DNA of 64,000 bases from positions 19,500 through 83,499 of the forward strand of contig JAYTTN010000714.1 in the NCBI GenBank assembly GCA_043745295.1. Reading direction: 5' to 3'. The DNA is from Fimbriiglobus sp. GTDB lineage: Bacteria > Planctomycetota > Planctomycetia > Gemmatales > Gemmataceae. Numbering within the stretch: position 1 is the first letter of the stretch; the number at the start of each line of letters is the position of its first letter. A model generated the notes under the pieces. That model saw only the letters and a list, made by a program, of their open reading frames with translations. It searched no databases and was not told the origin of the DNA. The position numbers and the translations under genes are program-made. Shown piece after piece: positions 1-46,644 of the stretch.

Positions 1-1142
1 AAAGTGACGATTTTGGATTCGAGGGCGAGCATTTCGCGGGTCGTCGCCATGTCGCGGCCATCGACGGTGCTCCGGATCAGCGGTTTGCGGGCGAGTTCGT
101 CGGCGACCCGGTCCACCGTCACCGCCCCGAGGCCGCGCTTCAAGGCTTCGGTCACGAGCTTGCGCTCGGGCACGACGGCGTCCCGAACAAAGCTGTGCTC
201 GACGGCGTGGTCCACGGCCGTCCGCTCGCCCGCAGTCGTCCGGTTGGGCTTGGTCTTTCGTTGGTAGACGCCCCTCAACCAGTCGCGCTCGTCGGCCGAG
301 AGCCGCGACAGCCATTCCTTCCGCAGTTCCGCCGCAGTCAGGTTCTTGCCCTTGTGTTCCCGCGTCTCGGCCCCGAGTTCGGCCTTACGGTCCGGGTCGG
401 TGATGCCACGCTCCAGGGCGACCTTCTCGATCAGTTCCGTCCGGCGGGAAAACCGCTTCAGGACGTCCGAGGGCACGCCCGCGATCTCGAAGTCGTCCCG
501 CTTGCGGACCACCCCGTAGCCGAGGTCTTGCAGCCGGTTCGCCAGCCGCACCCGGAAGGCCGCCTGGAAGTACGGGGCGTCTCGCTTGAGTTCGCGGAAC
601 TGGCCCGCCTTCCAACGTTCTTCGTCCTGGTCCCAGGTGCTGTTGAAGGCGAACACGTGGGCGTGGAGCTGCGGGTCGGGCACCCCGCCCACCGGCCGCG
701 ACGTGGTGTGGACGAACTCGGCCCAGACCATGTTGCCGGTCGGCCGGTCGGTATCCTGGCCTCCTGTCCTGACGCGGGTCTTCATTTCAGTCTCGACCTC
801 GCGCATGGTTTCCGCAACGGCGTCGCGGAAGGCGTCCAGCATCTTCTTGTCTTCGGTGAGGCCGTAGAGCAGCGACACGGACTTGGGCACCGAGAAGGTG
901 AAGTCGTACCCGACCGTCCGCTCGCCTCGCGTACGAACCGTCAAGGGCTGTGCGGTTACGGGGTTGATGTTGTCGCAGAGTTGCTCGAAGGCCTGCTTGC
1001 CGACCGTGCCCTCAAGGCCGAGCCGGGCCGCACCCTTACCGCCCCAACGCCCGATCAGTTCCTGGCCGTCGAGGTAATAGTCGGCCGAAGCGTAGTAACG
1101 CTTGGCACCGTCTGCACTGTTCTGTTGGGTCACACGAATCAT
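1..1142 (-). CDS. MobF (TrwC/TraI-type) conjugative relaxase, N-terminal relaxase domain. The gene continues past the left edge of the window.
   Basis: Reverse translation from the ATG at 1142 reads MIRVTQQNSADGAKRYYASADYYLDGQELIGRWGGKGAARLGLEG. Further in it reads FVHTTSRPVGGVPDPQLHAHVFAFN, a histidine-triad region. Both are typical of the TrwC family. It is absent from the ORF track because there is no stop inside the window. The + ORFs 4..1148 are its antisense shadow. Confidence 0.85.
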   Translation of the reverse strand, partial: MIRVTQQNSADGAKRYYASADYYLDGQELIGRWGGKGAARLGLEGTVGKQAFEQLCDNINPVTAQPLTVRTRGERTVGYDFTFSVPKSVSLLYGLTEDKKMLDAFRDAVAETMREVETEMKTRVRTGGQDTDRPTGNMVWAEFVHTTSRPVGGVPDPQLHAHVFAFNSTWDQDEERWKAGQFRELKRDAPYFQAAFRVRLANRLQDLGYGVVRKRDDFEIAGVPSDVLKRFSRRTELIEKVALERGITDPDRKAELGAETREHKGKNLTAAELRKEWLSRLSADERDWLRGVYQRKTKPNRTTAGERTAVDHAVEHSFVRDAVVPERKLVTEALKRGLGAVTVDRVADELARKPLIRSTVDGRDMATTREMLALESKIVT

Positions 1143-1457
1143 GCATAATTTTACCATATCACGTATTCGTTAACGCTTCCTTAACGCCTCTCTGCTCTCC
1201 GGCTCTCAGAGCCGATCTTAAAGCTTCCCGAAACACCGATGTGCATTCAACGTCACCGCGGTTCGACCGCAGTGCCGGGTACGCTTCTTGGTTTTTTGGA
1301 TTTATCCCAGCCGCGCCCTCGATTGGAACGCGAGACACTTGGGGAGCCGGTCCGCGACGTGTATTGCGGCCATTGATACGGCCGGTCGGCCGCCGTTAAC
1401 TCTTCCTTAAACGCGCGGTGCGAGAATCGTTGCAGGTAAAACGATTCATGAGCGACC
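1143..1457. promoter_or_regulatory. Divergent intergenic region; candidate oriT and promoters
   Basis: It lies between the relaxase start and the divergent repeat-protein gene. A 20-nt motif GTTAAC(G/T)CTTCCTTA(A)ACGC occurs at both ends (1169-1188 and 1395-1414). GGCTCTcAGAGCC is a palindrome at 1201-1213. GTGTATTGCGG at 1359-1369 resembles the R388 nic-region core GCGTATTGTCT and is followed by the CGGCC..GGCCG hairpin. Confidence 0.35.
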
Positions 1458-3389
1458 GTGTCCGACCCGTCAGAACCCGCAACCCCTTCCGTTCCCCCGT
1501 CCCTCGACCCGGACCTCCTGCGGCGGGCCGCCGACTTCTTGGCTGATGTTCGTCGAATCCAACGCGAGGGCGGGAGGAAGTTGACGGGCCGGTCCCACCT
1601 GCCCGACGAGACCCTCGGGGCGTGCTTCGACGCCTGGGACGGCAGCCGGCTGCTCGCCGAACTTCGCTCACCGCGGGAAGCGGTCGTACCCCACGACGTC
1701 CAGGGCACGCTGTTCGAGCGGTTCGAGGAGTTGTGCCGCAGGCGGCGGATCGCAGTTCCCGGCGACCTCCGACCGGCCGTCTACCGGCTACTCGCTTTGG
1801 AACTCGCCGTGAACGTCGAACTCCTGGGGGCGACGCCCGAATCCCTGGCCTCGGCCACGCTGTACGCCGGGGTTCTGGACGACCTCCGCGATCGGTTCCC
1901 CGACTTCGCGGACACCCCCGGTATTCTCCGCGAGGCCGCACAAGGGTATCCCTCGGACCCGTCCGGCTTCCTCGCGGACACCCGCGAGAAGATTACGAGG
2001 TTGGAGGCCGACGACCGATTCGCCCAGTTCCGCGACACGCCCGGCCTCTTCCGGCAGGCCGCGATATCGTACCCGAGTGACCCGGAACGCTATCTCACCC
2101 GACTCAGCCAGACCGTGGCCAGACTGGAAGGCGACGACCGGTTTGCCGGCTTCCGCGACTCGCCGGGCGTTTTCCGGCGGGCCGTCCTCGGCAACCCCGG
2201 CGATCCGGAGGCGTTCTTGATCCGCGTTCAAGACACGGTTGCCAGACTGGAAGGCGACGACCGGTTTAGCGAGTTCCGCGACTCGCCGTCCCTGCTCCTG
2301 GAGACGGCGCTCCACTACCCGACCGACCCCGAGGGGCATCTCGAACGCCTCCGCGAAACCTTTGCGCGTCTGGAGGCCGACGAGCGATTCGCCGCGCTCC
2401 GCGACACCCCCTACGTGTTACGACGAGCGGCCACCCATCACTCGGCAGCCCCCGAGGCATTTCTCACCGGGCTACTGGAAACGACCGCGCGGTTGGAGGC
2501 GGACGAGCGGTTCGCGGACTTCCGGGACACCCCGGGGGTTTTTCGTCACGCCGCCCTCCGTCACGCCAAGGACCCCGAAGCGTTTCTCGTCCGCGTCCGC
2601 GAGGCCGTAGCCCGCCTCGCGTCGTCCGACGAGTTCGCGGACTTCCGGGACACCCCCGGGCTATTCCGACACGCGGCGGTCAGTTACACGGACGCCCCGG
2701 AGGCCTTCCTGCGAAGGGTTCGGGCCGCGGCCGAGCAGCTCGCCGCGGCCGACCGATTTGCCGAATTCCGGGACACCCCCGGTATCTTCCGACAGGCCGC
2801 CGCCCACTCTTTGGGCGACCCCGAGGCGTTTCTCGTTCGTGCCCACAACGCCTTCTCCCGACTCGCGGCGGACGACCGGTTCGCCCCGCTCCGCGACACC
2901 CCCGGCGTCTTTCGGCGGGCGGTCCTCGGCAGTCCCGGCGATCCCGAGGGTTTCCTGGTCCGTGCATCGGAGACCCAGGCCCGGTTGGAGGCGGACGAGC
3001 GGTTCGCGGACTTCCGGGAGTCTCCGGGCATTTTCCGTCAGGCCGCCTTCCACCACCCGACCGACCCGGCCGGATACCTCGAAAAAGTCCGCGCGACGAC
3101 GGCCCGGCTCGCGCGAGACGAGCGGTACGCCGGGTTCCGCGATACGCCCTGGGTGTACCGGCAAGCGGCCGTTCACTATTCGGGCGACCCCGACGGGTTC
3201 CTGAGCCGTACGGCGGACATCGTGGCCCGGTTGGAGGCGGACGAGTCTCTGGCGGTGTTCCGGGACACCCCCGGCATCTTCCGGCAGGCGGCCGTTCGCA
3301 GCCCGGCAGACCCCGAGAGCTTCCTGGCGAAGGAGCTTGCGAGGCGGCGGTCCGGAGGGACGGGTGGGCAATCACGCTCGGACGGCTGA
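1458..3389 (+). CDS. Repeat protein: 139-aa head followed by 12 tandem 41-aa units; function unknown
   Basis: GTG start at 1458, 643 aa. The unit consensus is RLEADERFADFRDTPGIFRQAAxxxxxDPEAFLxRVxxxxA. No signal peptide. Confidence 0.8.
   Translation: MSDPSEPATPSVPPSLDPDLLRRAADFLADVRRIQREGGRKLTGRSHLPDETLGACFDAWDGSRLLAELRSPREAVVPHDVQGTLFERFEELCRRRRIAVPGDLRPAVYRLLALELAVNVELLGATPESLASATLYAGVLDDLRDRFPDFADTPGILREAAQGYPSDPSGFLADTREKITRLEADDRFAQFRDTPGLFRQAAISYPSDPERYLTRLSQTVARLEGDDRFAGFRDSPGVFRRAVLGNPGDPEAFLIRVQDTVARLEGDDRFSEFRDSPSLLLETALHYPTDPEGHLERLRETFARLEADERFAALRDTPYVLRRAATHHSAAPEAFLTGLLETTARLEADERFADFRDTPGVFRHAALRHAKDPEAFLVRVREAVARLASSDEFADFRDTPGLFRHAAVSYTDAPEAFLRRVRAAAEQLAAADRFAEFRDTPGIFRQAAAHSLGDPEAFLVRAHNAFSRLAADDRFAPLRDTPGVFRRAVLGSPGDPEGFLVRASETQARLEADERFADFRESPGIFRQAAFHHPTDPAGYLEKVRATTARLARDERYAGFRDTPWVYRQAAVHYSGDPDGFLSRTADIVARLEADESLAVFRDTPGIFRQAAVRSPADPESFLAKELARRRSGGTGGQSRSDG
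1875..3350 (+). repeat. 12 x 123-nt in-frame tandem coding repeats
   Basis: I counted each unit at exactly 41 aa, spanning aa 140-631 with no indels. Confidence 0.9.
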
Positions 3390-3752: not shown

Positions 3753-3852
3753 CCCGGTGCGCTGACGCCCCGGACTCCCACGGCTTTGGTTCGGGTGCCA
3801 TCAGGCCGCGATGGTCGCGGCCGGAGAACCACGAAGGGAAAGGACCAAGACC

Positions 3853-4062
3853 ATGACAACCAGCACGAAACCCGAATCTACCAGCAAGACCCCCAGCCAC
3901 GTCGCCTACCAGGTCCGCGACCGCGACGGCGGCAAAGGGTACTGGACCCGCATCGGCTCCGTCTGGCCGCACGCCGACGGCAACGGCTTCAACGTCCAGA
4001 TCGAAGTCGTCCCGCTCGACGGCCGGATCACGCTCCGCGTCGCCACCGAGAAGAAGGACTAA
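3853..4062 (+). CDS. Small conserved-looking plasmid protein (loosely DUF736-like)
   Basis: ATG at 3853 preceded by GAAGGGAAAGGAC. The product is MTTSTKPE...YWTRIGSVWPHADGNGFNVQIEVVPLDGRITLRV. The family assignment is tentative. Confidence 0.6.
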   Translation: MTTSTKPESTSKTPSHVAYQVRDRDGGKGYWTRIGSVWPHADGNGFNVQIEVVPLDGRITLRVATEKKD

Positions 4063-4125: not shown

Positions 4126-4296
4126 ATGTACGACGACACCGACCGCTTTACCCTCCACTCCCGTCTCCTTGACCTGACGGACCAGCTTTCCAGCGGCATC
4201 GATCCCGACTTCGATGTCGCCCAGGACGACCTGGAGCGAGAGTTCGCCGAACTCCGCCTCCATCTCGGCCGGATCGAGCAGGGAGGCCGCTCATGA
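4126..4296 (+). CDS. 56-aa acidic helical protein
   Basis: ATG at 4126 follows GAAAGGAAC. The product is MYDDTDRFTLHSRLLDLTDQLSSGIDPDFDVAQDDLEREFAELRLHLGRIEQGGRS. Its stop overlaps the next start (ATGA). It is below the length cut-off of the ORF track. Confidence 0.45.
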   Translation: MYDDTDRFTLHSRLLDLTDQLSSGIDPDFDVAQDDLEREFAELRLHLGRIEQGGRS

Positions 4297-4757
4297 CCAA
4301 CACGAACTGCCTCGAAGGCGTCCGCTGCCCGTCCTGCGACCAAGACGAACGGTTCATCATCTCCGCCCGGGTCGATTGCGAGGTCACCGACGACGGCACC
4401 TCGGCTTACGACAACAGCCATTACGAATGGGACGGCGAGAGTGCGTGTCATTGCCCCGAGTGCGGCCGGTACGGAAAGCTGCACGAGTTTCGTAAGCTCC
4501 CGCCGGACCCGGAAGGCATGAACGACACCCGGGCCGAGTGGGCCGGCTATGCCCTCACAGCCTTGATGTCGCAGACCGGCACCGACACGGATTCGGCCGT
4601 CACCGATCTGCTCTGTAACCTGATGCACCTGGCCGACCGCGAGACCACGAACTTTTCGGCCGACCTGGAACGTGCCCGCACGCACTACGAGGCCGAGACC
4701 GGTGCGAACCCGGACGACACCATCAATCTCACCCCAACGAAAGGACTCACCGTATGA
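4293..4757 (+). CDS. Zinc-ribbon-like hypothetical protein
   Basis: CPSC...CPEC cysteine pairs (VRCPSCDQDE ... CHCPECGRYG). ATGA overlaps with both neighbouring genes. Confidence 0.65.
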   Translation: MTNTNCLEGVRCPSCDQDERFIISARVDCEVTDDGTSAYDNSHYEWDGESACHCPECGRYGKLHEFRKLPPDPEGMNDTRAEWAGYALTALMSQTGTDTDSAVTDLLCNLMHLADRETTNFSADLERARTHYEAETGANPDDTINLTPTKGLTV

Positions 4758-5527
4758 TTTCACGCTCATCGACCACCCGCACTGTAAACCCGTTCTTCGC
4801 AGCCCGAGCGAGCCGTATTTCCGCAGACGTGCCGACGGCGAAGTACGACACGGTGCCGCAATACGCCCGCTTGCCGCAGGCACCCCGTAACGGTAGCCCC
4901 GTTCCGCACCTGACCAGCCTCTACCACTTCCACCGCGCCGGCGAGTACGGCGACCGGGCCTACCCCGGCAACTGCGGCGGCAACCTCATCAAGGATCTGC
5001 TGACCTATTTCGAGCCGGGTCTGGTCTTCGACCCGATGAGCGGGTCGGGCACCTGCGCGGACGTGTGCGAAGAGATGGGCGTCCCGTGCGTGTCCTTCGA
5101 CATCCACACCGGGTTCGACGCCTGCGACGCGGCCGAATTCCCCGGCCCCGAGACGTTCGACTTCATCTGGGCGCACCCGGCTTACTGGCGAATGAAGCTG
5201 TACGCCGACGACCCCCGCGACCTGTCCCGGTCCCCCACGCTCGACCACTTCCTGCGCCGGTACGGGCAGTTCCTCCGCAACTGTGCGTCGGCCCTCAAGC
5301 CCGACGGCAAGCTGGCCGTCCTGATGGGCGACTACAACGACCGCGACGAGGGATTCGTACCGCTCACCTTCCACACCAAGCGGCTGGCGTTTGCCGCCGG
5401 GCTGCGTCAGCACTGCACGGACATCATCCGCTTTTCCCACGGGGCGAGCAGCGGCAAGAAGGTCTACCGCAGCCGCTTCATCCCCGGCCTGCACGACACC
5501 TGCATGGTCTTCACCAAAGGCCGTTAA
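4754..5527 (+). CDS. Orphan DNA methyltransferase (amino-MTase type)
   Basis: Motif I-like VFDPMSGSGTCADV and motif IV-like WAHPAYW. The RBS is GAAAGGAC. No cognate nuclease gene lies adjacent. Confidence 0.7.
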   Translation: MISRSSTTRTVNPFFAARASRISADVPTAKYDTVPQYARLPQAPRNGSPVPHLTSLYHFHRAGEYGDRAYPGNCGGNLIKDLLTYFEPGLVFDPMSGSGTCADVCEEMGVPCVSFDIHTGFDACDAAEFPGPETFDFIWAHPAYWRMKLYADDPRDLSRSPTLDHFLRRYGQFLRNCASALKPDGKLAVLMGDYNDRDEGFVPLTFHTKRLAFAAGLRQHCTDIIRFSHGASSGKKVYRSRFIPGLHDTCMVFTKGR

Positions 5528-5555: not shown

Positions 5556-5966
5556 ATGACAAACACCGACTCTCGCCTTAACGACATCGCCGCAAAACTG
5601 CTCGGCATATCGACCCTGACGACCCGAAACTCCGACCGGCTCGACTTCCACACTGTGGCGGTCTGGCAGGTCGGGGCGGCGCTTACAGCCGCCTACGATT
5701 CTGGCCGGCAAGCAACACCTGTGACACCGCCGGATGCGAACGTACCGACGCCGTTCGACGGTTACGAAATCCAGCCGTGCCGGCTCCTGCGGGATACCGA
5801 CGAACCGCACCCGTCGTCCGTCGAACCCTGCGAGCCGTTCGAGGCCGACTTCTGGACGCTCTACGGCCACATCCCCGGCGAAGGTGTCATGACCGTCGGT
5901 GATTTCGACGCACGCGAACACGCCGAGGAAGTGTATGCCCGGATCACGGGTATCCAGTGGCAGTAA
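5556..5966 (+). CDS. Hypothetical protein
   Basis: An internal ATG at 5556 follows GAGAAAGGAC. The product is MTNTDSRLNDIAAKLLGISTLTTRNSDRLDFHTVAVWQV... The upstream part of ORF 5391..5966 is the overlap with the preceding gene. Confidence 0.6.
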   Translation: MTNTDSRLNDIAAKLLGISTLTTRNSDRLDFHTVAVWQVGAALTAAYDSGRQATPVTPPDANVPTPFDGYEIQPCRLLRDTDEPHPSSVEPCEPFEADFWTLYGHIPGEGVMTVGDFDAREHAEEVYARITGIQWQ

Positions 5967-6999: not shown

Positions 7000-7224
7000 T
7001 CAGTCACGGCGGTCGGCCTGGCGCTCGCTCCGGCCTTCCCCGTAGCCCCGTTCGTATGCCGCCAGCCACTCGGGCGATCGCTGGGCATCTTGGAAAACAT
7101 GATACTCATTGGGGCTGCCGTTCAGGCCGGCGAGCTTGCCATGCGAATAGGCCGCTTGCGTACTCGAAGCGTGGTGCTTCTCCAGGTCGCCGAGAAACGT
7201 TTTTAGTCCACTCCAGAAACTCAT
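7000..7224 (-). CDS. Small hypothetical protein
   Basis: ATG at 7224 with GGGAG 6 nt upstream; 74 aa. It is the only minus-strand ORF in this block. Confidence 0.35.
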   Translation of the reverse strand: MSFWSGLKTFLGDLEKHHASSTQAAYSHGKLAGLNGSPNEYHVFQDAQRSPEWLAAYERGYGEGRSERQADRRD

Positions 7225-7723
7225 GTTCGTCTCCCTATTGATGGGCGGCCGTGTCTACCGGCGGCCGAGCGTACGACAGCAGTCCGGCACGGACATTGTT
7301 CGAGCGGGTCGGGCCAAGATCAAGTGTGCCGGATGGACCCGCTGAGACACAGTTTGTGAGCCGCTTCCTTCCGTCTTCCATCGAGTCATTCCGAACCCGA
7401 GTCGGGTGCGGGATTCGGCTTCCGTTTCTCCTCGGCGGCGAGCCCCGCGAGCCACCGGTTGATACCGCCTCCCGTCGAGCGGAATCGGCAACCAACTGCG
7501 GTAATCGAAACCCACGTCCACACCGCTCACATGCCATCGCTTCGGGCGATGCGAGCCACCTCCACGCAGCCGTGGCATTGAGTTGTTCCCGCGCACGAGC
7601 CAGAGGGCTGGGGATGGCGTTTGGGTGAGGGCGTTGAAGAGCTTTTTCGTTCAGGCGTCTTCCCTATGCGGTGCATAGGCCGGATTTCCCGGGGAAATCG
7701 CGGGTCAACCGCCAGCCAGCAGT

Positions 7724-7915
7724 CCTGCAAGCAAGCTTGCAGGCTGGCATGACAGCAAGCTTTCCGTCTATACCGCAGGCCATCCCGCTTGCAGTCCAGC
7801 AAGAAGGACGGCATTCATGCTGGCCGTCACGCCAGCCAGACATCCCGCCAGCAAGAGGTCATGCCAACATGTCGGCTGGCCTGCCTGATGCACATACTGC
7901 TTGCCAGCATGACAG
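7724..7915. promoter_or_regulatory. parA upstream repeat cluster (operator and/or centromere-like site)
   Basis: Inverted repeat CCTGCAAGC-aa-GCTTGCAGG at 7724-7743. There are four copies of (T/C)(G/C)(G/A)GCATGA(C): 7745-7755 (+), 7815-7823 (-), 7858-7866 (-) and 7904-7915 (+). Confidence 0.5.
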
Positions 7916-7925
7916 TTGCCATGCT

Positions 7926-8612
7926 ATGAGTCGGTTCGTGATTATCGTCATTGCAAATTCCAAAGGCGGGGTCGGGAAATCGACCATCGCCGTTCACCTC
8001 GCAGCCTGGCTTCACGAGCAGGGCTACAGCGTCATTCTTGCCGACTGCGACGCCCAGCATTCCTCGTCGGAATGGGCGAAGGAAGCCGTCCCTGCGGTTC
8101 GCAGCGTTTCGCTCCCGGACCCCGACGCCATCCTCGACCGCCTGCCGCTCCTCGATCAGGAAGCGGATTTCGTCGTCGCCGATGGTCCGGGTAGCAACAC
8201 GGAAACCAGCCGCGCCCTCCTGCTGCGGGCCGACCTCGCACTGGTGCCCTGCAAGGCCAGCATGCTCGAAGTGCGGGCACTGGCCCAGGCAACGAACGTG
8301 CTGCGTCAGGCTCAGGACATCCGGGGCGGCGTCCCGCGTGCAATGATTGCTCTGACCATGATCGGCAAGACCTACCGGCTGACTCAGGACATGAAAGACG
8401 CGGCCGCCGCGTTGGGACTCACCGTCGCCAAATCGGGGCTGACGCAACGCCAGGTTTACGCCGACGCTCCCGGCCAGGGAGCCGTCGTCTGGAAACTCGG
8501 TTCTCGGGGCAAGGAAGCTGCCGAGGAGGTCGATGCGCTGTTTGCCGAACTGCTCCCGGGAAAACGCACGATGTACTTAAACGGCAGACAGACACGAAAG
8601 GCAGTCGCATGA
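7926..8612 (+). CDS. parA: ParA/Soj-family partition ATPase
   Basis: MSRFVIIVIANSKGGVGKSTIAVHLAAW carries the deviant Walker A motif. The start is the ATG at 7926 inside ORF 7671..8612. Confidence 0.9.
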   Translation: MSRFVIIVIANSKGGVGKSTIAVHLAAWLHEQGYSVILADCDAQHSSSEWAKEAVPAVRSVSLPDPDAILDRLPLLDQEADFVVADGPGSNTETSRALLLRADLALVPCKASMLEVRALAQATNVLRQAQDIRGGVPRAMIALTMIGKTYRLTQDMKDAAAALGLTVAKSGLTQRQVYADAPGQGAVVWKLGSRGKEAAEEVDALFAELLPGKRTMYLNGRQTRKAVA

Positions 8613-8631
8613 GACGTGTGGGGGAATCGAG

Positions 8632-8958
8632 ATGAAAGAGCGCAGGACACTTATAGACGGCATCGGCCCGTTGGACCGCTCAGCGGAGAAAGAGTTCGTG
8701 TTCGGCGGCAAAGCAAGCCCTCCGCAGGCCGACGCCTCGCAGTCATCGACGAACCGGGAACCGACGGCCAATCTCCATGCACCCGCAACAGCCAACCGGA
8801 TGCCACTGAGCACGCGAATCCGTGCCGACTTTGGGACGGCTCTCAAGCGTGCGTCGCTCGAACGCCAACTCAGCGGGACTACGCCGAACACGCTCCAGGA
8901 CATCCTCGAAGAAGCTCTCGAACCCTGGCTGCGGGACAACGGCTATCTCCCGAACTGA
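8632..8958 (+). CDS. Small partition or centromere-binding protein, RHH (ParG/CopG-like) C-terminus
   Basis: It lies immediately downstream of parA and is 108 aa. The C-terminus PLSTRIRADFGTALKRASLERQL...TLQDILEEALEPWL fits a strand-helix-helix pattern. Confidence 0.6.
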   Translation: MKERRTLIDGIGPLDRSAEKEFVFGGKASPPQADASQSSTNREPTANLHAPATANRMPLSTRIRADFGTALKRASLERQLSGTTPNTLQDILEEALEPWLRDNGYLPN

Positions 8959-9023
8959 GACGAGGGCAGTACGTTTTCCGACGACACTTGCGGCACATCC
9001 AAACCGGGCAGACATTTTTCCGC

Positions 9024-10064
9024 TCAAGGCGGCCCGCGTCGCTCGTACCATTTCCGGCAGAAGCCGATGAAGGCGGCGTCCGGGTCGCGGGGCGTCTCGG
9101 ACATCCAGTCCCGCCACTCCTTTTCCAGGAGGTACACGTCCCAGCCGGGGGCGACGATCCTCGCGTCGTTGTAAGTGTCGGGTTTCAAAAATCCGATCGG
9201 CACTGGGGTACTGACATCGGCACTGCCCGGCACACTGCCGCGGCTGCGAAACACCACCATGTCGTCGGCGATCTCGATGGCGTAATCCGGCATGTGCTGG
9301 TGCAGCCGGTCTTCGTCCACGATCCTGGACACGAGCCGCCGAAACTCCTTCTCGGTCGAAACCGACCCGCATTTGTTCTGCAACACCGCGAGAGAAATTC
9401 GCCACTCTGCCTTCTTGCCACAGTGCTTCCGCGCGATCTCGTACAACCGCCTCTCCAGGGGTTTTCGCAGCCGGAAGTAGTCCCGGTGCAGGGTAAGGAC
9501 TTCGTGGTGGCGGATGGCGTTGAAGACCCAGTCCGACAGCTTGATCTCCACCTCCTGCATGCGACCGTCCCGCGTCTCGCGGACGATCCTCGCCCGTTCG
9601 ATGAGGCCGAACGTCTCGAACACCTCCTCCCCGCCGGTGACGACGTTGGTACTGATCCGGGTACCCGCCAGCCGCTCGAAGGCGGCCTTGAGCGCCTGGT
9701 AGCCCTGGCCGCTGGTCATCCGGTTCGTCGCCTTCAGGAGGTCATAAGCCTTGAAGCGGATCACTGGCGAGACCTGCTGGCCGGCGTTGATCGCCGCCAT
9801 CAACTGGCTGATGCAGTAAATGAGCACGTCCCGGTCGTGGACCGTCGCCAGGCCGTCCGACGACGGCTTGATCTCGACGTAGCTGGGGCCGTTCTCGTAC
9901 CGCCTGACGCGGTGATCGGGTTTGGTCGAGAGCGAAAAAACCGGGTGCTCCATCGAGGCCATGTCGCTCTTGGGGGCCGCGTCCATGATGTCGCAGACGA
10001 AGAAGTCCGGCACCGGACGACGTTCGGGCAGAAGTGGGGGACGATCTTTGACCGGAGAACTCAT
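9024..10064 (-). CDS. repA: Plasmid replication initiator (RepA, RPA-family type)
   Basis: PDFFVCDIMDAAPKSDMASMEHPVFSLSTKPD...GLATVHDRDVLIYCISQL is characteristic of the Replication initiator protein A family. Iterons lie directly upstream. Confidence 0.85.
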   Translation of the reverse strand: MSSPVKDRPPLLPERRPVPDFFVCDIMDAAPKSDMASMEHPVFSLSTKPDHRVRRYENGPSYVEIKPSSDGLATVHDRDVLIYCISQLMAAINAGQQVSPVIRFKAYDLLKATNRMTSGQGYQALKAAFERLAGTRISTNVVTGGEEVFETFGLIERARIVRETRDGRMQEVEIKLSDWVFNAIRHHEVLTLHRDYFRLRKPLERRLYEIARKHCGKKAEWRISLAVLQNKCGSVSTEKEFRRLVSRIVDEDRLHQHMPDYAIEIADDMVVFRSRGSVPGSADVSTPVPIGFLKPDTYNDARIVAPGWDVYLLEKEWRDWMSETPRDPDAAFIGFCRKWYERRGPP

Positions 10065-10270: not shown

Positions 10271-10369
10271 TGGTAATAAACATCAATGCTTTACGGGTGG
10301 TTATCCACAGCGTAACACTCTAATTAACACCTATTTAACACCTCTTAGCAGACCGTATCCTGTGGACAA
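10271..10369. other. AT-rich stretch with DnaA boxes (oriV unwinding and host-factor region)
   Basis: A perfect DnaA box TTATCCACA at 10301-10309. An inverted near-box TGTGGACAA at 10361-10369. TAACAC(C/T) recurs three times between them. This is the lowest-GC segment near repA. Confidence 0.6.
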
Positions 10370-11372: not shown

Positions 11373-11648
11373 CCGAGAGAGCAGGTGCAGTCCGCCATGC
11401 CGCCGTCCCAAAGCCATTTTCCCATCCGCGGTGCCCGAATGCTTGTTGCCGGGCGAACGAATCCGTGCGATACCGCGTCTCATTCACGGCGGACCCGCCG
11501 CGCGCCCGGCGACCATGCCGGCCACGACGGCCGCTGAGCATGGCCCGGAAGCCGCCGGGACGGCGGGGCCCCTCACTCTTTTCCGACGACCCGGACGAAC
11601 CGACCGGGCCACCCCACGAGTCACCCCCGAAGACCCAAGGAGCCGACC

Positions 11649-11963
11649 ATGCAGTACAAGACGATCATCCTGGAACTGATCCGGCAGAACCAGCCGCTCC
11701 ACGACCGGCTGCGGCGGGAGCGCGACCTCCTGGCGACGGTCGAGCGGATGGCCCTGGAACTCAAAGCCAGCCACCTGGAACACCTCCGCAACCTGACCGC
11801 GACGAACCCACACCGTCCCCCGACACACGCCTCTTCACAAGCCTTCGAGACGGCCGTGAGGGAGATGGAGGAGCGTTTGCTTCCCGGTTCGAGGGCGGAC
11901 GGGGACGAGCCCCTCTCGCTCGCCGGGGCGATGGCCTTCCTCGCTCGTTCGCCGAAAAAGTAA
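11649..11963 (+). CDS. Small helical hypothetical protein
   Basis: ATG follows AAGGAG. MQYKTIILELIRQNQPLHDRLRRERDLL... has balanced composition. The overlapping frame of ORF 11465.. is P/G/R-rich junk in this stretch. Confidence 0.5.
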   Translation: MQYKTIILELIRQNQPLHDRLRRERDLLATVERMALELKASHLEHLRNLTATNPHRPPTHASSQAFETAVREMEERLLPGSRADGDEPLSLAGAMAFLARSPKK

Positions 11964-12118
11964 CCCGGTCCCGCCAGGGATCACTTTTCGACCTTGACCC
12001 CGACGACACACCTCTTGAATTGTCCACACCGCCCGCCACACCGGCACCGGCCGGCGCACCAGACCTGCCGCCGGCCGAACCGGCGGCGGGACCACCGACC
12101 ACCCCCGATGCCAACCGG

Positions 12119-15100
12119 ATGGCCGGCGGGGAGATGGCCAAGGCCCGCGACATCCTCGCCGCGATCCGCACCCTGAAGGTCGTCGAGCGGGAACAGCGCC
12201 CCGCGACCACCCAAGAAAAACAGACCCTGGCCCGGTTCTCCGGCTTCGGCCCGGTCGCCCTGTCCGTCTTCCCGGACCCGGCGACCGGCCGCTTCAAAGA
12301 CGCCCGCTGGCAGGCTGTCGGGGAGGAGCTGCGGTCACTCCTGACCGAGGGCGAGTACGCCAGCGCCCGGCGGACCACGTTCAACGCCTTCTACACCTCG
12401 TTCGAGGTGATCGACGCCATCCACGCCGGCATCGGCCGGCTGGGTGCCCCGACCGCCGCCACGGTACTGGAACCCGGCTGCGGGGTCGGGAACTTCATGG
12501 GCCGCGGCAGCCCGGCCAACCGCTTCATCGGCGTCGAGATGGACTCCGTCTCGGGCCGGATCGCGCGGGCGATCCACCCGGGCCACGACATCCGCGTCGA
12601 GAACTTCCGCGACACGACCCTGCCCGAGGGGCGGATCGATGCCGTCGTCGGCAACGTCCCGTTCGCCGACCTTAAACTGGACCACAAGGGCCAGAAATAC
12701 TCCCTCCACGACTACTTCTTCGCCAAGTCCGTCGACGCCCTGAAACCCGGCGGCGTGCTCGCGCTGGTCACGTCCCACTTCACCCTCGACAAGCAGAACG
12801 CCGCCGCCCGCGAGTATCTCGCCGCTCAGGCCGACTTCGTGGGCGCGATCCGCCTGCCGTCGGACGCCTTCAAGCGGGAGGGGACCGCCGTCGTGACCGA
12901 CATCGTCTTTCTTCGCAAGCGGCCACCCGGGGTGGCCGCCAATCATGTTGATGATGACTGGCGGGGAGTCGCCCCGCTGGAGATCGATGGCGCGGCGGTC
13001 TCCGTTAACCGCTACTTCCTGAACCACCCGGAGATGGTCCTGGGAACCTGGAGCCGCAAGGACACGCTTTACGGCGGCGAAGGCATCAGCGTCCAAAGCA
13101 ATGGCGATCTGGCCGGACAACTCCAGCAAGCCGTCGAACGGCTTCCCCGATTCGAGCCGACGCGGGCAACGGGCCTCGATGCCAGGCCGGTCCCGGTCTT
13201 CGTACCCCCGCCGGCCGAGCGGCATATTGCCGAAGGGAGCTTCTTTATCGGTGACGACAGGGTGATCTACCAGTCCGAGGGCGGGCAGGGGCAGACCGTC
13301 GTTTACGGTGGCACGACGCTCAAGGCTGAAGGCACCATGACCGGCAAGCGCCTCGGCTCACTGATTGAACTTCGGGACCGCGCCCGCCGCGTGCTGCAAT
13401 CCCAGAACGAGGGCTGGCCGGACGAGCACCGGGAGGCGGCCCGCCGCGACCTGAACCGGACTTACGACCGCTTCGTGGCGGCTTACGGCCCCGTCAACAA
13501 AACGACGTTCGGCGAGACCGAGGGCGGCACCACCATCCGCCGGATGCCGAACGTCGTGAAATTCAAGGAAGACCCGGACGCCATGCTGGTGATGGCGCTC
13601 GAAGACTACGACGAGACGACCAACAAAGCGTCAAAAGCCGCCATCATGCGGCGCGACGTGGTGGGCCGCACCCCGCCCGTCACGAGCGTTCGCACCGCCG
13701 AGGAGGGGCTGCTGGTGTCGCTCGACCAGCGCGGCGCGGTGGACCTGCCGTACATCGCCGCCCTCTACGGCAAGCCCGAGGAACAGGTCATCGCCGAGTT
13801 GGGCGACCTGATCTTCCGCGACCCGGAAGCGCAGACCTGGGAGACGGCCGACGTGTACCTGTCGGGCAACGTCCGGCACAAGCTGGCCGCCTCCGAACGG
13901 ACCGGCGGCGAATTCGTCCGCAACGCCGACGCCCTGCGCGACGTGCAGCCCGAGGACGTGCTGCCCGGCGACATCGACGCCAACCTGGGCGCGCCCTGGA
14001 TACCCGCGGCCGACATCCAGGCGTTCGCCGCCGACCTGTTCAAGGTCCCGCCCGCCTCCGTGCCCGTCGCACACCTGGAGAAGGACGCGGTCTGGAGCCT
14101 GGAGCCGGCCTACGACGCCAAAGCGTCCGTGGCCGCCACCGCCGACTTCGGTACGGCGCGGGCGAACGGCACCTGGCTGTTCGACCTGGCCCTGAACATG
14201 AAGTCGCCGACCATCTACGACACGGTCCGGTCGGGCGACCGCGAGGAGCGGGTGGTCAACCCCGACGAGACGCTGGCCGCCCGCGAGAAGCAGAAGCTGG
14301 TCAAGGAGCGTTTCCGCGCCTGGGTGTTCGCCGAACCCGACCGCACCGAGCGGCTGGTGCGGCTCTACAACGACACCTACAACAACCTGCGGCCCCGGCA
14401 GTTCGACGGCTCGCACCTCGACTTCCCCGGCATGAACCAGGCCCTGAGCCTGCGGCCGCACCAGAAGGACGCCGTCTGGCGCGGGATGAGCAGCGGCAAC
14501 ACGCTGCTGGCCCACGCCGTCGGGGCCGGCAAGACGTTCACGATGGCCGCGACCGGCATGAAGATGAAGCAGGCCGGCCTAGTCCACAAGCCGATGTACG
14601 TCGTCCCCAACCACCTGCTCGAACAGTTCGCCCGCGAGTTCGTGCAACTCTACCCGAACGCCCGGCTGCTCGTCGCCGCGAAGGAAGACCTGGCCAAAGA
14701 CCGCCGCAAGGTGCTGACCGCCAAGATCGCCAGCGGCGAGTGGGACGGGATCGTCGTCACGCACTCGTCGTTCGAGCGGATCGGCATGTCGCGGGAGTAT
14801 CAGGAACAGTTCCTCCGCGACCAGATCGCCGAGTACGACAAGCTGCTCGTGGAGCACGCCGGAAGCCGCGGCGGCAACCGCAACCTCATCAAAACCATTG
14901 AAAAGCAGAAGGCGGCCCGCGCCGAGCGGCTGAAAGACCTGCTCGCCGGCGACAAGAAGGACGACGGCCTGGTGTTCGACGAACTCGGGGTGGACCACGT
15001 CTTCATCGACGAGGCCCACTACTTCAAGAACCTCGAAACGCCGACCAAAATGGACCGGGTGGCCGGCATCCAGTCCGGCGGGTCCGAGCGCGCCTTCGAC

Positions 15101-17143
15101 GTGTACATGAAGGCCCGCTACCTGGACGGGCGGCACAAGGGCCACGGCGTCACCTTCGCCACGGGCACCCCCATATCCAACACGATGATGGAGATGTACA
15201 CCATGCAGCGGTTCCTCGACCCGCACGGGCTGGCCAGCCGGGGGATCGAGCACTTCGACGCCTGGGCCGCCACCTTCGGCGAGGTCGTCGATGCGATGGA
15301 ACTCTCCCCCGACGGGGCGGGCCTGCGGCCGCGCAGCCGGTTCGCCAAATTCACCAACCTGCCGGAACTCCAGCAGATGTTCCGGGCGTTCGCCGACGTG
15401 CAGACCGCCGAGATGCTCGACCTGCCCCGGCCGAAGCTGCGGGGCGGCAAGCCCGAGGTGGTGGCCTGCCCGATGTCCGACGAGCAGCACGCCCTCCAGC
15501 AGGAGCTGGTCGCCCGCTACGAACGGCTGCGGTCCCAGAAGGTGGACCCGCGCGAGGACAACGCCCTTGCGATCACGACCGATGGCCGCAAGTTGGCGAC
15601 CGACGCAAGGATGTTGTCGGCGTCGGCCCCGGACTTCCCGGAATCAAAAGTCAACCGCCTCATCGAGAATGTCGTTGCAACCTGGAAGCAGTCCGCCGCG
15701 ACGCGCGGCACGCAGATGATTTTTGCCGACATGGGCGTAAACCCGACCGCCTGGGGTTACTCGCCCTACGAGGAGATTATCAAAAAACTCATCGCTGCCG
15801 GCGTTCCGGCCGAGCAGATCGCCGCAATGGGCGATGCCGACTCCGACGCCAAAAAACAGGCCCTGTTCGAGAAGGTCCGCCAGGGTTCGGTTCGCGTCCT
15901 GCTCGGCAGCACCCAGAAAATGGGCACCGGCACCAACGTCCAGAAGCGTCTTGTCGCACTGCATCACCTCGACGCCCCCTGGAAACCAGCGGAAGTCGAG
16001 CAGCGCGACGGCCGCATTCTTCGGCAGGGCAACGAAAACGAGGAAGTGGCAATCTACCGCTACGTCACGGAAGGATCATTCGACGCCTATATGTGGCAGG
16101 CGCTGGAGACCAAGGCCCGGTTCATCGGGCAAGTCATCACCGGCGACAACGCCGCCCGCCGGGCCGAGGACATCGGCGGCCAGGAACTCTCCTACGCCGA
16201 GGTCAAGGCCATCGCGTCGGGCAACCCGGCGGTGCTCACGCTGGCCGAGGCCGACGCCGAGTTGCAGCGATTGACGCTACTGAGAAAGAACCACCTGGAC
16301 GAGCAATACGTCGCCCGCCGGAGCGTCCGCGACCTGCCCGGAAAGATCGACGGGCTGAACGACCGGCTCTCGCGGCTGACCGCCGACGAGGCGACCGCCA
16401 CGGCCCGCGAAGGCGACCCCGTCACCATCGGCAAGCAGGCGTGGTCCCGCGGCGATGCGGTTGCCGTCCTGGGCAAGAGGCTCGATGCCCTGCCGCTCAG
16501 CGCCCGCGAGCCGACCCGAGTGCAACTTGGGGTCTACCGGGGACTGCGGTTCGGCCTCGTCCTGCACCCGAACTTCCCGGCCGACGTTTACCTGGAAGGG
16601 GAGACCACGCAGCGGTCGATGATGTCCCGAGACCACCAGGGGCCGCGGGCGGTCCTGAACGCGCTCTCCCGCATGGCCGACGACTACGCCTCCGACATCG
16701 TCCGCGTCCGCCGAGACCTGTCCGTCGCCGAGGGCCAATTGCGCGACTACCGGGACCGCCTGGGCAAGCCGTTCGCCCACGAGGCGTACCTGACCGCCTT
16801 GACGAACCTGCGGGATCATTTGAAAGCAAGGCTCTCGGCGAACGGCCGGGGGCCGAACCAGGAAGAAGGGCCGAATACGGACGAATTGGCTTCGGAAATC
16901 AAGTCGCTGAAAGCGGCAAACACCGTCGAGGCCACCCCGCAGCGGGCCGGCCAGAAACATTCCACCGCCGAGGAGCCGATTACCGCCCGCATCCGCCGCC
17001 GGCAGGAAGGAACGGGCACAGCCACGCAAATGCGAACTGCGCCGGGAGGCGGGCAGGAGGAGCAGGAAGCCACGAGCTTTGCACGGCGCATTCTCCGCGA
17101 GCGAGAGCAAAATGCCGAAGGCGAGGGGCAAAGCCCGCCGTAA
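12119..17143 (+). CDS. Polyvalent N6-adenine DNA methyltransferase fused to an SNF2/DEAD-like helicase (phage P1 DarB-like)
   Basis: MTase motif I VLEPGCGVGNFMG and motif IV GNVPFAD. Helicase Walker A AHAVGAGKTF, DEAH in FIDEAHYF, and motif VI QRDGRILRQGN. A long coiled C-terminal tail. The start is uncertain: ATG 12119 or 12134, or a non-ATG start after 11966. Confidence 0.85.
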   Translation: MAGGEMAKARDILAAIRTLKVVEREQRPATTQEKQTLARFSGFGPVALSVFPDPATGRFKDARWQAVGEELRSLLTEGEYASARRTTFNAFYTSFEVIDAIHAGIGRLGAPTAATVLEPGCGVGNFMGRGSPANRFIGVEMDSVSGRIARAIHPGHDIRVENFRDTTLPEGRIDAVVGNVPFADLKLDHKGQKYSLHDYFFAKSVDALKPGGVLALVTSHFTLDKQNAAAREYLAAQADFVGAIRLPSDAFKREGTAVVTDIVFLRKRPPGVAANHVDDDWRGVAPLEIDGAAVSVNRYFLNHPEMVLGTWSRKDTLYGGEGISVQSNGDLAGQLQQAVERLPRFEPTRATGLDARPVPVFVPPPAERHIAEGSFFIGDDRVIYQSEGGQGQTVVYGGTTLKAEGTMTGKRLGSLIELRDRARRVLQSQNEGWPDEHREAARRDLNRTYDRFVAAYGPVNKTTFGETEGGTTIRRMPNVVKFKEDPDAMLVMALEDYDETTNKASKAAIMRRDVVGRTPPVTSVRTAEEGLLVSLDQRGAVDLPYIAALYGKPEEQVIAELGDLIFRDPEAQTWETADVYLSGNVRHKLAASERTGGEFVRNADALRDVQPEDVLPGDIDANLGAPWIPAADIQAFAADLFKVPPASVPVAHLEKDAVWSLEPAYDAKASVAATADFGTARANGTWLFDLALNMKSPTIYDTVRSGDREERVVNPDETLAAREKQKLVKERFRAWVFAEPDRTERLVRLYNDTYNNLRPRQFDGSHLDFPGMNQALSLRPHQKDAVWRGMSSGNTLLAHAVGAGKTFTMAATGMKMKQAGLVHKPMYVVPNHLLEQFAREFVQLYPNARLLVAAKEDLAKDRRKVLTAKIASGEWDGIVVTHSSFERIGMSREYQEQFLRDQIAEYDKLLVEHAGSRGGNRNLIKTIEKQKAARAERLKDLLAGDKKDDGLVFDELGVDHVFIDEAHYFKNLETPTKMDRVAGIQSGGSERAFDVYMKARYLDGRHKGHGVTFATGTPISNTMMEMYTMQRFLDPHGLASRGIEHFDAWAATFGEVVDAMELSPDGAGLRPRSRFAKFTNLPELQQMFRAFADVQTAEMLDLPRPKLRGGKPEVVACPMSDEQHALQQELVARYERLRSQKVDPREDNALAITTDGRKLATDARMLSASAPDFPESKVNRLIENVVATWKQSAATRGTQMIFADMGVNPTAWGYSPYEEIIKKLIAAGVPAEQIAAMGDADSDAKKQALFEKVRQGSVRVLLGSTQKMGTGTNVQKRLVALHHLDAPWKPAEVEQRDGRILRQGNENEEVAIYRYVTEGSFDAYMWQALETKARFIGQVITGDNAARRAEDIGGQELSYAEVKAIASGNPAVLTLAEADAELQRLTLLRKNHLDEQYVARRSVRDLPGKIDGLNDRLSRLTADEATATAREGDPVTIGKQAWSRGDAVAVLGKRLDALPLSAREPTRVQLGVYRGLRFGLVLHPNFPADVYLEGETTQRSMMSRDHQGPRAVLNALSRMADDYASDIVRVRRDLSVAEGQLRDYRDRLGKPFAHEAYLTALTNLRDHLKARLSANGRGPNQEEGPNTDELASEIKSLKAANTVEATPQRAGQKHSTAEEPITARIRRRQEGTGTATQMRTAPGGGQEEQEATSFARRILREREQNAEGEGQSPP

Positions 17144-43942: not shown

Positions 43943-44106
43943 CATTACGGACAGCGAGAATCGTTTCATGTTTGCTAACCGCGTGTGGCCCCACCTATCA
44001 CGAATCGCTCGATCAAAAGTTGCTCGGCAAGTCGCCGGACGAGCGCCGGGCGGTTTTGGCCAGGGAATGTGCCCGGCAGGCCGAAGGCCCTTCGCGCGTT
44101 TGCTGA
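43939..44106 (+). CDS. Possible 55-aa lipoprotein
   Basis: The ATG overlaps the czcA stop (ATGA). MTLRTARIVSCLLTACGPTYHE... has the lipobox LLTAC. Confidence 0.35.
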   Translation: MTLRTARIVSCLLTACGPTYHESLDQKLLGKSPDERRAVLARECARQAEGPSRVC

Positions 44107-44219
44107 ACTGATCTGACTCTGGTGCGCTACCGTCACCGCGGTGGGATGCGGAAGGGAAATGGGTGCGCGGGGTGCATCTTAAACATAGCCGATGCGTAGC
44201 AAATATGTTGCAGGCCGGT

Positions 44220-44630: not shown

Positions 44631-44656
44631 TTCCTCCTAGAAGCGGCCCTCCGGTA

Positions 44657-44681
44657 ATGTGTAAAATTGGATTTTACACAT
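44657..44681. promoter_or_regulatory. AT-rich 11-bp perfect palindrome
   Basis: ATGTGTAAAAT-tgg-ATTTTACACAT, just upstream of the lipoprotein gene. Confidence 0.4.
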
Positions 44682-44927: not shown

Positions 44928-46157
44928 TTAGCCGAACACATTGCACAGTACCTGCCGCTGCTGGTGCGGGAACAGGTGGCGGTAGCGGCGTCGTTGGGCC
45001 TCCGTGCCGTGGCCGACGAATTCGTCGATGAATCGCTGATCGACGCCTTTGGCCGCGAGATTTGAAACGAAGGAGTGCCGTAGGACGTGCCAACCTCGAA
45101 GCACCGACCACTTCGATCCACGAACGGAAAGCACGAACTGCCAACCGGCATCGTCCACTGTGACCGGCACCACCTTGCCGGCTTCGTGATCGAAGAACAA
45201 GTGCTGCCCTCCGTGATGATCCTTGGCGAGCCAGCCCTTGAGTACCGACTCCAGGAACGGCGTGAGAGGAACCCGCCGGGTCGTGCGTTGCCCCTTCACT
45301 CGCTTGCGTTCGTGGATCAGGATCGTCTTGCCCTGGAAGTCCACGTCGTCGACATGGAGCCGGACGAGTTCGCTGCGCCGCGCCCCGGTGTGGGCCGCCG
45401 TCGCAATCATCGGGTGCATCCACGGCTTCGAGCCGTGCGTGGCCATGAATTCGACGAACTCGGCCACCTGACCGAGATCGAGGAACAGGCAGTCCCACCA
45501 CTTCTTGATTTCGCCCGCCGCGAGGCCACCACGACCGATGCGGCGTTCGATGTCCTCCCAGGTCGTGAACGGCCGCTTGTCCTCGCCTTTGGGATACCGC
45601 AGTCCTTTGTTCGGAAACGTGCCCTCCAAGATGCCCGTCTGCACGGCCCAGTTGAAGCAGGCCCGGAACGCCGCCATTTCCTTTTGCAGCGACACCGTGC
45701 TGAGCGGGATCGACTTGTTCCCTTTGACGCGGACCCGGGTGTTGACGTAGTCCTGCAAGTGCGAGGTCGTGAGCTGATTGATTTTGAACGACTCGCCGAG
45801 CTTGCGGCGTATTTGCTTCAGGTGCAAGACGAGCATCTCCAGCGAGTTCGCTTCCATCGAGCCGTTCCCACAGGTAGCAAGGTAACGTTCGAAGACATCG
45901 CCGAGCAGCGGCGAGGATGCGATAACCGGCGGTGCCGCCAGCTTGCCGTCGGAGAGCAGAAAGGTGATGAGGTCGGCATCCGGCGGAAGTTCGAAGCGAC
46001 CGCGTTCGAGTAGGACGAGGTTTTCCTCGAAGCGGAGCCGGGTCGCCTCGGCCGATTTTGTGTCGTCGGTGTCGAGCGTGCGGCGATACTTCTTGCCTCC
46101 GAAGCGGAAGCGGAGATGATAGTGCCCTGAGGTTCGGTGTTGTTCGAGCCAGGCCAT
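44928..46157 (-). CDS. Tyrosine recombinase (phage-type integrase)
   Basis: The C-terminus is WHVLRHSFVSNLAAKG...FVGHGTEAQRRRYRH, which carries the R..H..R..Y signature. The likely start is MAWLEQHRTSGHYHLRFRFGGKKYRRTL at 46157 (alternative 46181). Confidence 0.85.
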   Translation of the reverse strand: MAWLEQHRTSGHYHLRFRFGGKKYRRTLDTDDTKSAEATRLRFEENLVLLERGRFELPPDADLITFLLSDGKLAAPPVIASSPLLGDVFERYLATCGNGSMEANSLEMLVLHLKQIRRKLGESFKINQLTTSHLQDYVNTRVRVKGNKSIPLSTVSLQKEMAAFRACFNWAVQTGILEGTFPNKGLRYPKGEDKRPFTTWEDIERRIGRGGLAAGEIKKWWDCLFLDLGQVAEFVEFMATHGSKPWMHPMIATAAHTGARRSELVRLHVDDVDFQGKTILIHERKRVKGQRTTRRVPLTPFLESVLKGWLAKDHHGGQHLFFDHEAGKVVPVTVDDAGWQFVLSVRGSKWSVLRGWHVLRHSFVSNLAAKGVDQRFIDEFVGHGTEAQRRRYRHLFPHQQRQVLCNVFG

Positions 46158-46644
46158 GACGAGGACTCCGAAAGGACGCATCGAGAGTACGCCCTGGGAT
46201 GCGTCGGTCCCAGCCACGTAACTCCAACGCAACCTCCCGATTGCCCTCCATCTGCCCTCCACGAACGGAAGGGCAGCCGATTTTGGAGGACAAAGACTCG
46301 CCGTAAGTGCCGACCCGATAGTATGATCGGGCCGGCGGATTTCGTTGCAACACGCTTTGCCCAACTAGCCGCTGCACCTGACCCGGCCAAGTAAACTGAT
46401 TCCCGTAGCGTCCTGCGCGTCGTTGTTGCGGTTGGTGTCGCGACCGGGGCGGATTCCCACCGAAGCCGCCTTGCCCTCCGTTCGCCGCGCGACATAATAC
46501 CAGCCTGAAAATCGGCGGAACCCGACCGTTCCGCCCGCACGCCACCTGCCCACAGCATCACCCTGGCACCCGGCGAGGGTATCGCGCCTCGACTCCCGCA
46601 GAGTCGAACCGCGAGAGAGCCGCCGGACGCCCGAGGCCACCGCC

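Follow-up and report, generated by a model that had tools for sequence, protein, structure and literature searches.

An undescribed family of phased alpha-solenoid repeat proteins encoded by optional genes of integrative MOBF elements, mostly in Planctomycetota

What is a long, strictly phased array of helical repeats doing beside the relaxase gene of a mobile element? The question is raised by a 64,000-nucleotide stretch of DNA from Fimbriiglobus sp. (contig JAYTTN010000714.1, positions 19,500 to 83,499), which we call the window and from whose first letter all window coordinates are counted. In it, a gene encoding a 643-residue protein with twelve tandem repeats (1458..3389, + strand) stands back to back with the gene of a TrwC/MOBF relaxase, within a mobile element integrated in a planctomycete chromosome. 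Our analysis shows that this repeat gene is an optional accessory gene of integrative MOBF (TrwC) elements, found mostly in Planctomycetota, and that its product represents an undescribed but real family of alpha-solenoid tandem-repeat proteins. As to what the protein does, we tentatively propose an accessory nucleic-acid-binding function of the mTERF/pTERF type, perhaps exerted on the palindrome upstream of its own gene, a reading that we regard as quite possible while stopping short of calling it probable.

The open reading frame (ORF) begins with GTG, no earlier start codon following the in-frame TGA at 1449-1451, and four homologues of the protein likewise start with V or GTG. Its GC content by codon position (GC3 of 0.82 vs GC2 of 0.52) gives a good coding signal, and the overlapping ORFs in other frames are artefacts of high GC content. 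Behind a head of 139 residues (1458..1874), the array extends from residue 140 (nucleotide 1875) to position 3350 and consists of 12 units of exactly 41 residues without any insertion or deletion; unit 1 is degenerate, and unit 12 merges into a Gly/Ser/Arg tail, SGGTGGQSRSDG, which together with the stop codon occupies 3351..3389. Self-identity of the protein at a lag of 41 residues is 0.528, compared with 0.03-0.11 at the other lags between 30 and 49 and with 0.088 ± 0.013 in shuffled sequences (z = 34.5). This reproduces the architecture given in the original prediction, a model's reading of the DNA letters made before any database search, whose quoted unit consensus and tail are also correct. 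Units of the window protein share on average ~50-51% identity in protein and ~60% in DNA sequence, and adjacent units are 66-69% identical at codon positions 1 and 2 and 47% identical at position 3. Since the first two positions are kept and the third is not, the array is an ancient one maintained by purifying selection at the protein level, which also accounts for Tandem Repeats Finder reporting no repeats for it.

To obtain a structural view of the repeats, AlphaFold2 was used for a full-length model, built with eight family sequences, and for a second model of a six-unit fragment. The two models reached a mean predicted local distance difference test (pLDDT) score of 85 and 89.6, respectively, the latter with a predicted template modelling score (pTM) of 0.72, and they confidently predict a solenoid with three helices per unit, as had been anticipated from the conserved positions. 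In the model, each unit contributes a 17-residue helix (unit positions 29-41 continuing into positions 1-4 of the next unit), a 6-residue helix (6-11) and a 10-residue helix (15-24), the last being followed by a four-residue loop (25-28). The head, which carries the family motif FERFEE[ML]CRRR, is modelled as all-helical with a pLDDT of ~80-90, and both protein termini are disordered, residues 634-643 of the tail having a pLDDT below 50. We also considered the head as a set of degenerate repeats and rejected this candidate, HHalign of head against unit giving an E-value of 0.12 over 10 columns, which is not significant. No hydrophobic segment is visible at the N-terminus, in agreement with the proposed lack of a signal peptide.

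Across the family, the unit follows the consensus R-L-x-x-D-x-[RE]-F-A-x-[FL]-R-D-T-P-[GS]-[IV]-F-[RK]-x-A-A-[VIL]-x-[YNH]-P-[ST]-D-P-x-x-[FY]-L-x-x-V-x-x-x-[IV]-A, in which positions 2, 8, 11, 17, 18, 21, 22, 32, 33, 36, 40 and 41 are invariantly hydrophobic with helical periodicity. Per-position entropy reaches at least 2.5 bits at 13 of the 41 positions (3, 4, 10, 20, 24, 27, 30, 31, 34, 35 and 37-39); these lie outside the conserved hydrophobic core, as the original prediction required of a variable surface, are distributed over all three helices, and are polar, lying between invariant hydrophobic ones. Variation had been described as concentrated in two patches, which holds within the window protein, where entropy peaks at positions 23-27 and 34-40 as well as at 10 and 20, and does not hold family-wide, where it spreads over the helices as listed above. 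Positions 23, 36 and 40 belong to the hydrophobic core and show conservative replacements. Basic residues are conserved at four to five positions of every unit (1, 12, 19 and 34/35, with R or E at position 7), while the conserved aspartates at 5, 13 and 28 directly precede helix starts in the model, those at 13 and 28 standing before a conserved proline that opens the helix, and would seem to be structural.

The family is considerably larger than a simple search reveals: a word-indexed search returned seven relatives, and an exhaustive profile search detected 419 clusters (at 50% identity) at E ≤ 1e-3, of which 315 remained at E ≤ 1e-10. Its members have between 1 and 12 units, 2-5 being the mode and the count in the window protein the highest seen, and the head was detected in 140 of 161 family sequences. 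Median identity between units is 63% within a protein vs 46% between proteins, implying that arrays expand and contract independently in each lineage. Two members, P0009 (773 residues) and P0011 (667 residues), contain two blocks of 41-residue units separated by ~130-180 residues, suggesting a duplication of the entire head-plus-array architecture. Another, P0005, appears fused to an IS1595 transposase, perhaps through an artefact of gene calling, and no informative domain fusions were found among the long members.

Profile searches agree with the initial impression that the unit is not a described repeat type. Pfam, NCBIfam and PADLOC scans of the window protein returned only noise below threshold (TetR_C_13, FF, JetB), and when 141 family members were scanned singly, scattered repeat-induced noise was obtained and no mTERF, TPR, HEAT, ARM, PPR or TALE family. 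Neither the single protein nor the profile matched any sequence in the PDB, and PLSDB gave no match by DNA search or tblastn. No homologues were found by tblastn against phages or in a scan of IMG/VR, and a Foldseek comparison with viral models produced only tape-measure-like noise.

We examined 14 homologous loci (designated with the prefix L), 13 of them distinct, since L005 and L006 encode the same protein. They derive from metagenome-assembled genomes (MAGs) of Gemmataceae, Aeoliella, Planctomycetia and Phycisphaerales, and a few from MAGs labelled Alcaligenaceae, Alphaproteobacteria or Acidobacteria. The survey of genomic context places all 14 in mobile elements: TrwC is encoded within 6 kb of the repeat gene in 8 of the 13 distinct loci, L003 and L007 have type IV coupling protein (T4CP)-like genes, and other loci contain integrases, DUF736, ArdC or insertion sequences. 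The DUF736 genes near the repeat gene in L002 and L004 are genuine.

In the window, the relaxase gene is on the minus strand and runs off the start of the stretch (1..1142), so that the N-terminal part of the protein is encoded, with a Pfam match to PF08751 at E 2.1e-71; its start codon at 1142 (MIRVTQQ...) was set by alignment with seven orthologues. The proposed divergent orientation of the repeat gene and a MOBF relaxase gene is borne out, the intergenic region between them containing conserved blocks, and the same divergent, adjacent arrangement is found in L008, L009 and L010. L013 has the same downstream gene order, and its contig ends before any relaxase. Elsewhere the position differs: in L001 and L011 the repeat gene shares the strand of TrwC and is its immediate upstream neighbour, and in L002 and L007 it is 3.4 kb and 5.6 kb away from TrwC.

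This linkage raises the possibility that the protein is a core accessory of the relaxosome, binding the origin of transfer (oriT) and needed for nicking by TrwC in the manner of TrwA, TraY or TraM, and the six loci in which the gene adjoins the relaxase gene, including the two with an immediately upstream, same-strand position, would fit such a role. A comparison set of 80 metagenomic loci, with relaxase domains sharing 53-88% identity with that of the window, argues against it. The repeat gene was detected in none of the 80 loci by hidden Markov model (HMM) search or tblastn, including all 47 that have at least 2.5 kb of sequence upstream of the relaxase. Many of these loci share other genes of the element, namely those for an 83-residue ORF, a DNA methyltransferase, a DUF6900 protein, an SNF2 protein, ParA and RPA, and in many the 83-residue ORF is the immediate neighbour of the relaxase at a distance of ~600 bp. 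The absence of the repeat gene implies that it is an optional insert in a variable slot; the protein is therefore not a core part of the relaxosome or a required partner of this relaxase clade. With a repeat number varying from 1 to 12 and no ribbon-helix-helix (RHH) or helix-turn-helix (HTH) domain in the protein or family, a relaxosome component is very improbable.

The same slot, in the closest sister element, contains a different repeat protein. This element, L015, has a relaxase 86-88% identical to that of the window, with RPA at 93% and ParA at 90% identity, and in the position and orientation of the repeat gene it encodes a 471-residue protein with seven units of ~39 residues (8215-9630 of that locus, minus strand; consensus LTxxDYLKAALKQPSLFxxSPxTIxxNIxGVVERFAxDG). 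This protein passes the Pfam mTERF model marginally, with 23.6 bits vs a cutoff of 23.1. A search with it returned a family of 150 hits, planctomycete genomes included, many of which have precomputed mTERF matches, and members of this family are fused to XRE, sigma-70 region 4 or HTH_17 DNA-binding domains. The L015-type proteins may represent a bacterial family of mTERF-like proteins on mobile elements that has so far gone unrecognised. Elsewhere the slot holds two ankyrin proteins with an integrase (L037), a toxin-antitoxin pair (in L039), a kinase (in L030) or integrases.

Prokaryotic relatives of mTERF are of interest here, since the recently described pTERF proteins consist of 3-11 mTERF-like units in tandem, each made of three helices (Hu et al., Nucleic Acids Res 2024, PMC11417379). 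They bind specific double-stranded DNA with nanomolar dissociation constants, and the motif of pTERF1, ACTNNNAGTC, has inverted-repeat symmetry, while mTERF motifs proper are ~30 residues long and interspersed rather than in strict tandem (PMC11417379). Compared by published description, pTERF and the present family are alike in their head-to-tail three-helix units, in the variable number of these units (3-11 in pTERF, 1-12 here) and in being known mostly from MAGs. They differ in unit length, which is 41 residues here, 35 in pTERF1 (taken from its cluster name, TR_35_C32_2) and 39 in the L015 type, and in the ~140-residue head, which is particular to the 41-residue family.

Aligning the profiles of the 41-residue and 39-residue units with HHalign gave a probability of 61.5%, a pairwise E-value of 7.8e-5 and a score of 25.9, against 9.0 ± 3.3 in a column-shuffle null in which 1 of 100 shuffles reached the observed score. 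The alignment pairs T-P-x-[IV]-F-x-x-A-A-x-x-x-P-S-D-P of the present family with T-x-x-x-Y-L-x-A-A-x-x-x-P-S-(LFxx)-S-P, relative to which six residues are inserted in the window unit and four are missing from it behind the conserved proline. A direct HMM search between the two families gave no matches, and the window protein did not match the Pfam mTERF family (PF02536) even at E ≤ 10. At the level of fold, the top Foldseek match in the PDB for both models was DNA-bound MTERF1 (3MVA/3MVB), with E 0.12 (probability 0.92) for the full-length model and E 0.36 (probability 0.30) for the fragment, neither of which is significant. MTERF1 resembles the present protein in its helical repeats of left-handed type with three helical elements per unit and differs from it in showing no sequence match to it in Pfam or PDB searches. 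We consider the relation to mTERF-like repeats suggestive, a lead and not a membership.

Following this lead, the array would form a superhelix lying along nucleic acid in the manner of mTERF and pTERF, the conserved Arg/Lys positions of each unit would contact the nucleic acid, and the protein would regulate or protect the DNA of the element, the first candidate target being the conserved palindrome upstream of its own gene, which would make it autoregulatory. Several observations weigh against this proposal. Across the 141 family members scanned, mTERF was not among the 25 most-matched Pfam families, and the Foldseek alignments to MTERF1 have TM-scores of 0.17-0.28 and root-mean-square deviations of 12-14 Å, with no match being significant. 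The window protein has a net charge of -16, and in the family, whose isoelectric points (pI) range from 5.1 to 10.3, net charge is not consistently positive. As judged from the aligned units, a compact hypervariable code is absent, and between the window protein and its closest relatives no one-to-one orthology of units could be found except for units 1 and 4. Finally, genes for ankyrin repeats, which are typical protein binders, occupy the same neighbourhood in L001 and L037.

The missing code also separates the family from TAL effectors, with which the original prediction had compared its recognition pattern. A TALE unit has two helices in 33-35 residues and a hypervariable code of two residues on a scaffold that is otherwise almost unvarying, whereas units of the window protein share only ~51% identity. 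The TALE dHax3 was the second Foldseek match of the six-unit model, which was not significant, and both build a superhelix from tandem helical repeats in strict phase, yet in the present family variation extends over many exposed positions and the units do not correspond one-to-one between relatives. A code of one or two hypervariable residues per unit, as in TALE or PPR repeats, is absent. Armadillo repeats, with three helices in ~42 residues, are comparable in unit length and helix number; here the differences are the lack of a Pfam Arm/HEAT match and of any ARM protein among the fold matches.

If the protein binds DNA, the region upstream of its gene is the first place to look. A perfect palindrome, GAATCGTT-N8-AACGATTC, ends 10 nucleotides before the start codon (1424..1447, + strand), occurring once in the window vs 0.01 expected by chance. 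In 1.1 Mb of fetched loci, AATCGTT-N8-10-AACGATT has no occurrences other than those immediately ahead of the repeat gene. These are in the window, L007, L008 and L013, while L009 and L010 have degenerate copies, and in L007 the motif travels with the repeat gene away from the relaxase. Conserved arms around a variable spacer would be more in line with a protein operator than with an RNA hairpin, and the palindrome is a candidate operator.

A second set of signals is shared with other genes of the element. The box GTTAAC-N5-CTTAA lies ~25 nucleotides upstream of the relaxase start (1169..1184, + strand), where it is also found upstream of TrwC in L007, L008, L009 and L015, and again 48 nucleotides upstream of the repeat gene (1395..1410, + strand). 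A third box, GTTAAC-N5-[CG]TTAA, precedes the gene of the RPA replication initiator (10324-10339), and a similar one is located upstream of the mTERF-like gene in L015. Counting both strands, GTTAAC-N5-[CG]TTAA has 4 matches in the window vs 0.23 expected by chance. On this distribution the box resembles an operator shared within the element and suggests that the repeat gene is regulated together with the relaxase.

The intergenic region also contains GAGACACTTGGGG (1331..1343, + strand), the window copy, with one mismatch, of a block GGACAnTTGGG. In 21 related loci this block precedes the TrwC start by 185-207 nucleotides, and a T-run and a CCTTGAC-like motif often stand ahead of it. In L007 the block (20206-20216) stays with the relaxase and the repeat gene is elsewhere. 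It is a reasonable candidate for the oriT core and nic region or for the relaxase promoter, and the oriT originally placed here is, on this conservation, plausible as a candidate. The further claim that the repeat gene is the first gene of the leading region finds only partial support, such a position not being a conserved property of the family. The gene is beside the oriT-like block in the window, L008, L009 and L010; it is not so placed in L001, L002, L007 and L011, and related relaxase loci lack it.

A gene in this position could instead encode an establishment or anti-defence factor, made early in the recipient from the oriT-proximal end of the element, whose solenoid would serve as a scaffold to sequester a defence or stress factor of the host. 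Its optional, lineage-restricted occurrence in a variable slot beside the oriT-like block would suit this role, as would the neighbouring orphan DNA methyltransferase and the ArdC homologue carried by L004. Fast changes in repeat number, with units more alike within than between proteins (63% vs 46%), are what fast-evolving interaction proteins show, and ankyrin genes are again relevant here: in L001 three of them share an operon with the repeat gene and another is encoded downstream of the relaxase (ankyrin-repeat genes at 7136-9985 and 14900-15835), and L037 has its pair at 7862-9495. Ankyrin proteins resemble the present family in being solenoids encoded in the same relaxase-proximal neighbourhood, and differ in being of unrelated fold and sequence and in using their repeats as protein-binding modules. 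Both ankyrin proteins of L037 share a conserved C-terminal extension (…DLAPWRRAK…ERY[LV]R…). The location of the gene in the relaxase operon in L001 and L011, and kilobases from the oriT-like block in L002 and L007, speaks against such a role; PADLOC yielded only the sub-threshold JetB match, and phage and viral collections yielded no homologues. We also rejected the idea of a DNA mimic, since the pI values of the family are inconsistent and not consistently acidic, so that this mechanism is not a family trait. Overall, we find an establishment or anti-defence role unlikely, if worth keeping in mind.

A related idea is that the solenoid is a substrate of type IV secretion, recruited by the coupling protein and delivered with the DNA to the recipient. 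The linkage to the relaxase and the T4CP-like genes in L003 and L007 are consistent with it, and by eye several of the solenoid proteins end in Gly/Ser/Arg tails finishing in R (...GRER, ...ERSR, ...DVTR), in keeping with the earlier speculation that the basic C-terminal tail is a secretion signal. When compared with control ORFs from the same high-GC loci, such tails are not enriched: 25% of family members end in R vs 17% of controls (p = 0.059), and at least two R are present in the last eight residues of 24% of family members vs 30% of controls, so this part of the proposal falls away. MOBF relaxases and coupling proteins have been found in planctomycete chromosomes, in which no complete mating-pair system has been reported or mating machinery recognised (bioRxiv 10.1101/2024.01.22.576637). 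A secretion substrate is, in our estimate, quite improbable.

Returning to nucleic-acid binding, its most far-reaching form would make the family a new modular class of nucleic-acid-reading repeats, a distant cousin of mTERF and pTERF that is swapped with mTERF-like and ankyrin proteins in a 'solenoid slot' on the oriT side and recognises DNA of the element or the host during transfer, with unit number and surface residues setting a target that could be reprogrammed. We think this extended version distinctly unlikely.

The remaining features of the window describe the element in which the repeat gene resides. Downstream of it on the + strand are four backbone genes that are syntenic near TrwC in many loci without a repeat gene: an 83-residue ORF (3811-4062), a 154-residue Cys-rich ORF (4293-4757), an orphan N6/N4 DNA methyltransferase (4754-5527) and a DUF6900 protein (5556-5966), the latter two identified by Pfam. 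The 83-residue ORF has no Pfam match and is conserved beside TrwC in at least 26 related loci. Further genes of the element encode an M48-like protein, ParA and the RPA-type replication initiator. They are accompanied by a gene for a 1892-residue protein (11465-17143, + strand) combining an N-terminal DNA methyltransferase-like region (residues ~300-490) with an SNF2/ResIII helicase, which is kept in many related elements and matches the DrmD, BrxH and mad2 models of PADLOC.

The region 18730-44000 carries metal-efflux cargo, with genes for a P-type ATPase, a Na/Ca exchanger, an HMA-domain protein and two RND efflux sets made up of an AcrB-like pump, a membrane-fusion protein and an outer-membrane protein. 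Also encoded there, at 33868-36984, is a restriction-modification enzyme of type IIG (PADLOC E 9e-88). ARAGORN predicted a 90-nucleotide tRNA-Arg(ACG) at 27398-27487 (minus strand), which is probably a false positive as it lies inside the AcrB-like ORF at 27212-30334. At the right end of the element is a tyrosine integrase gene (44928..46364, minus strand; Pfam), around which GC content falls to 0.58 (44000-46600), at the junction with housekeeping genes. These genes, L25, Pth and S6, begin at 46645 beyond the integrase, and the Pth of the window shares 66-76% identity with proteins of Fimbriiglobus and Gemmataceae, which makes a Gemmataceae planctomycete the probable host. At the junction of integrase and housekeeping genes no tRNA gene was detected, and an Rfam scan of the window gave no matches.

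Conjugation in Planctomycetota is almost unstudied, and the family described here, ~420 clusters that are currently without annotation, marks a variable, relaxase-proximal slot of their mobile elements in which it is one of several kinds of solenoid protein. If its members bind DNA as pTERF does, they would add a new, strictly phased scaffold to the few candidate programmable DNA binders and would indicate that DNA transfer has accessory functions of a new kind. Should they bind host proteins instead, they would be new candidates for anti-defence or establishment factors.

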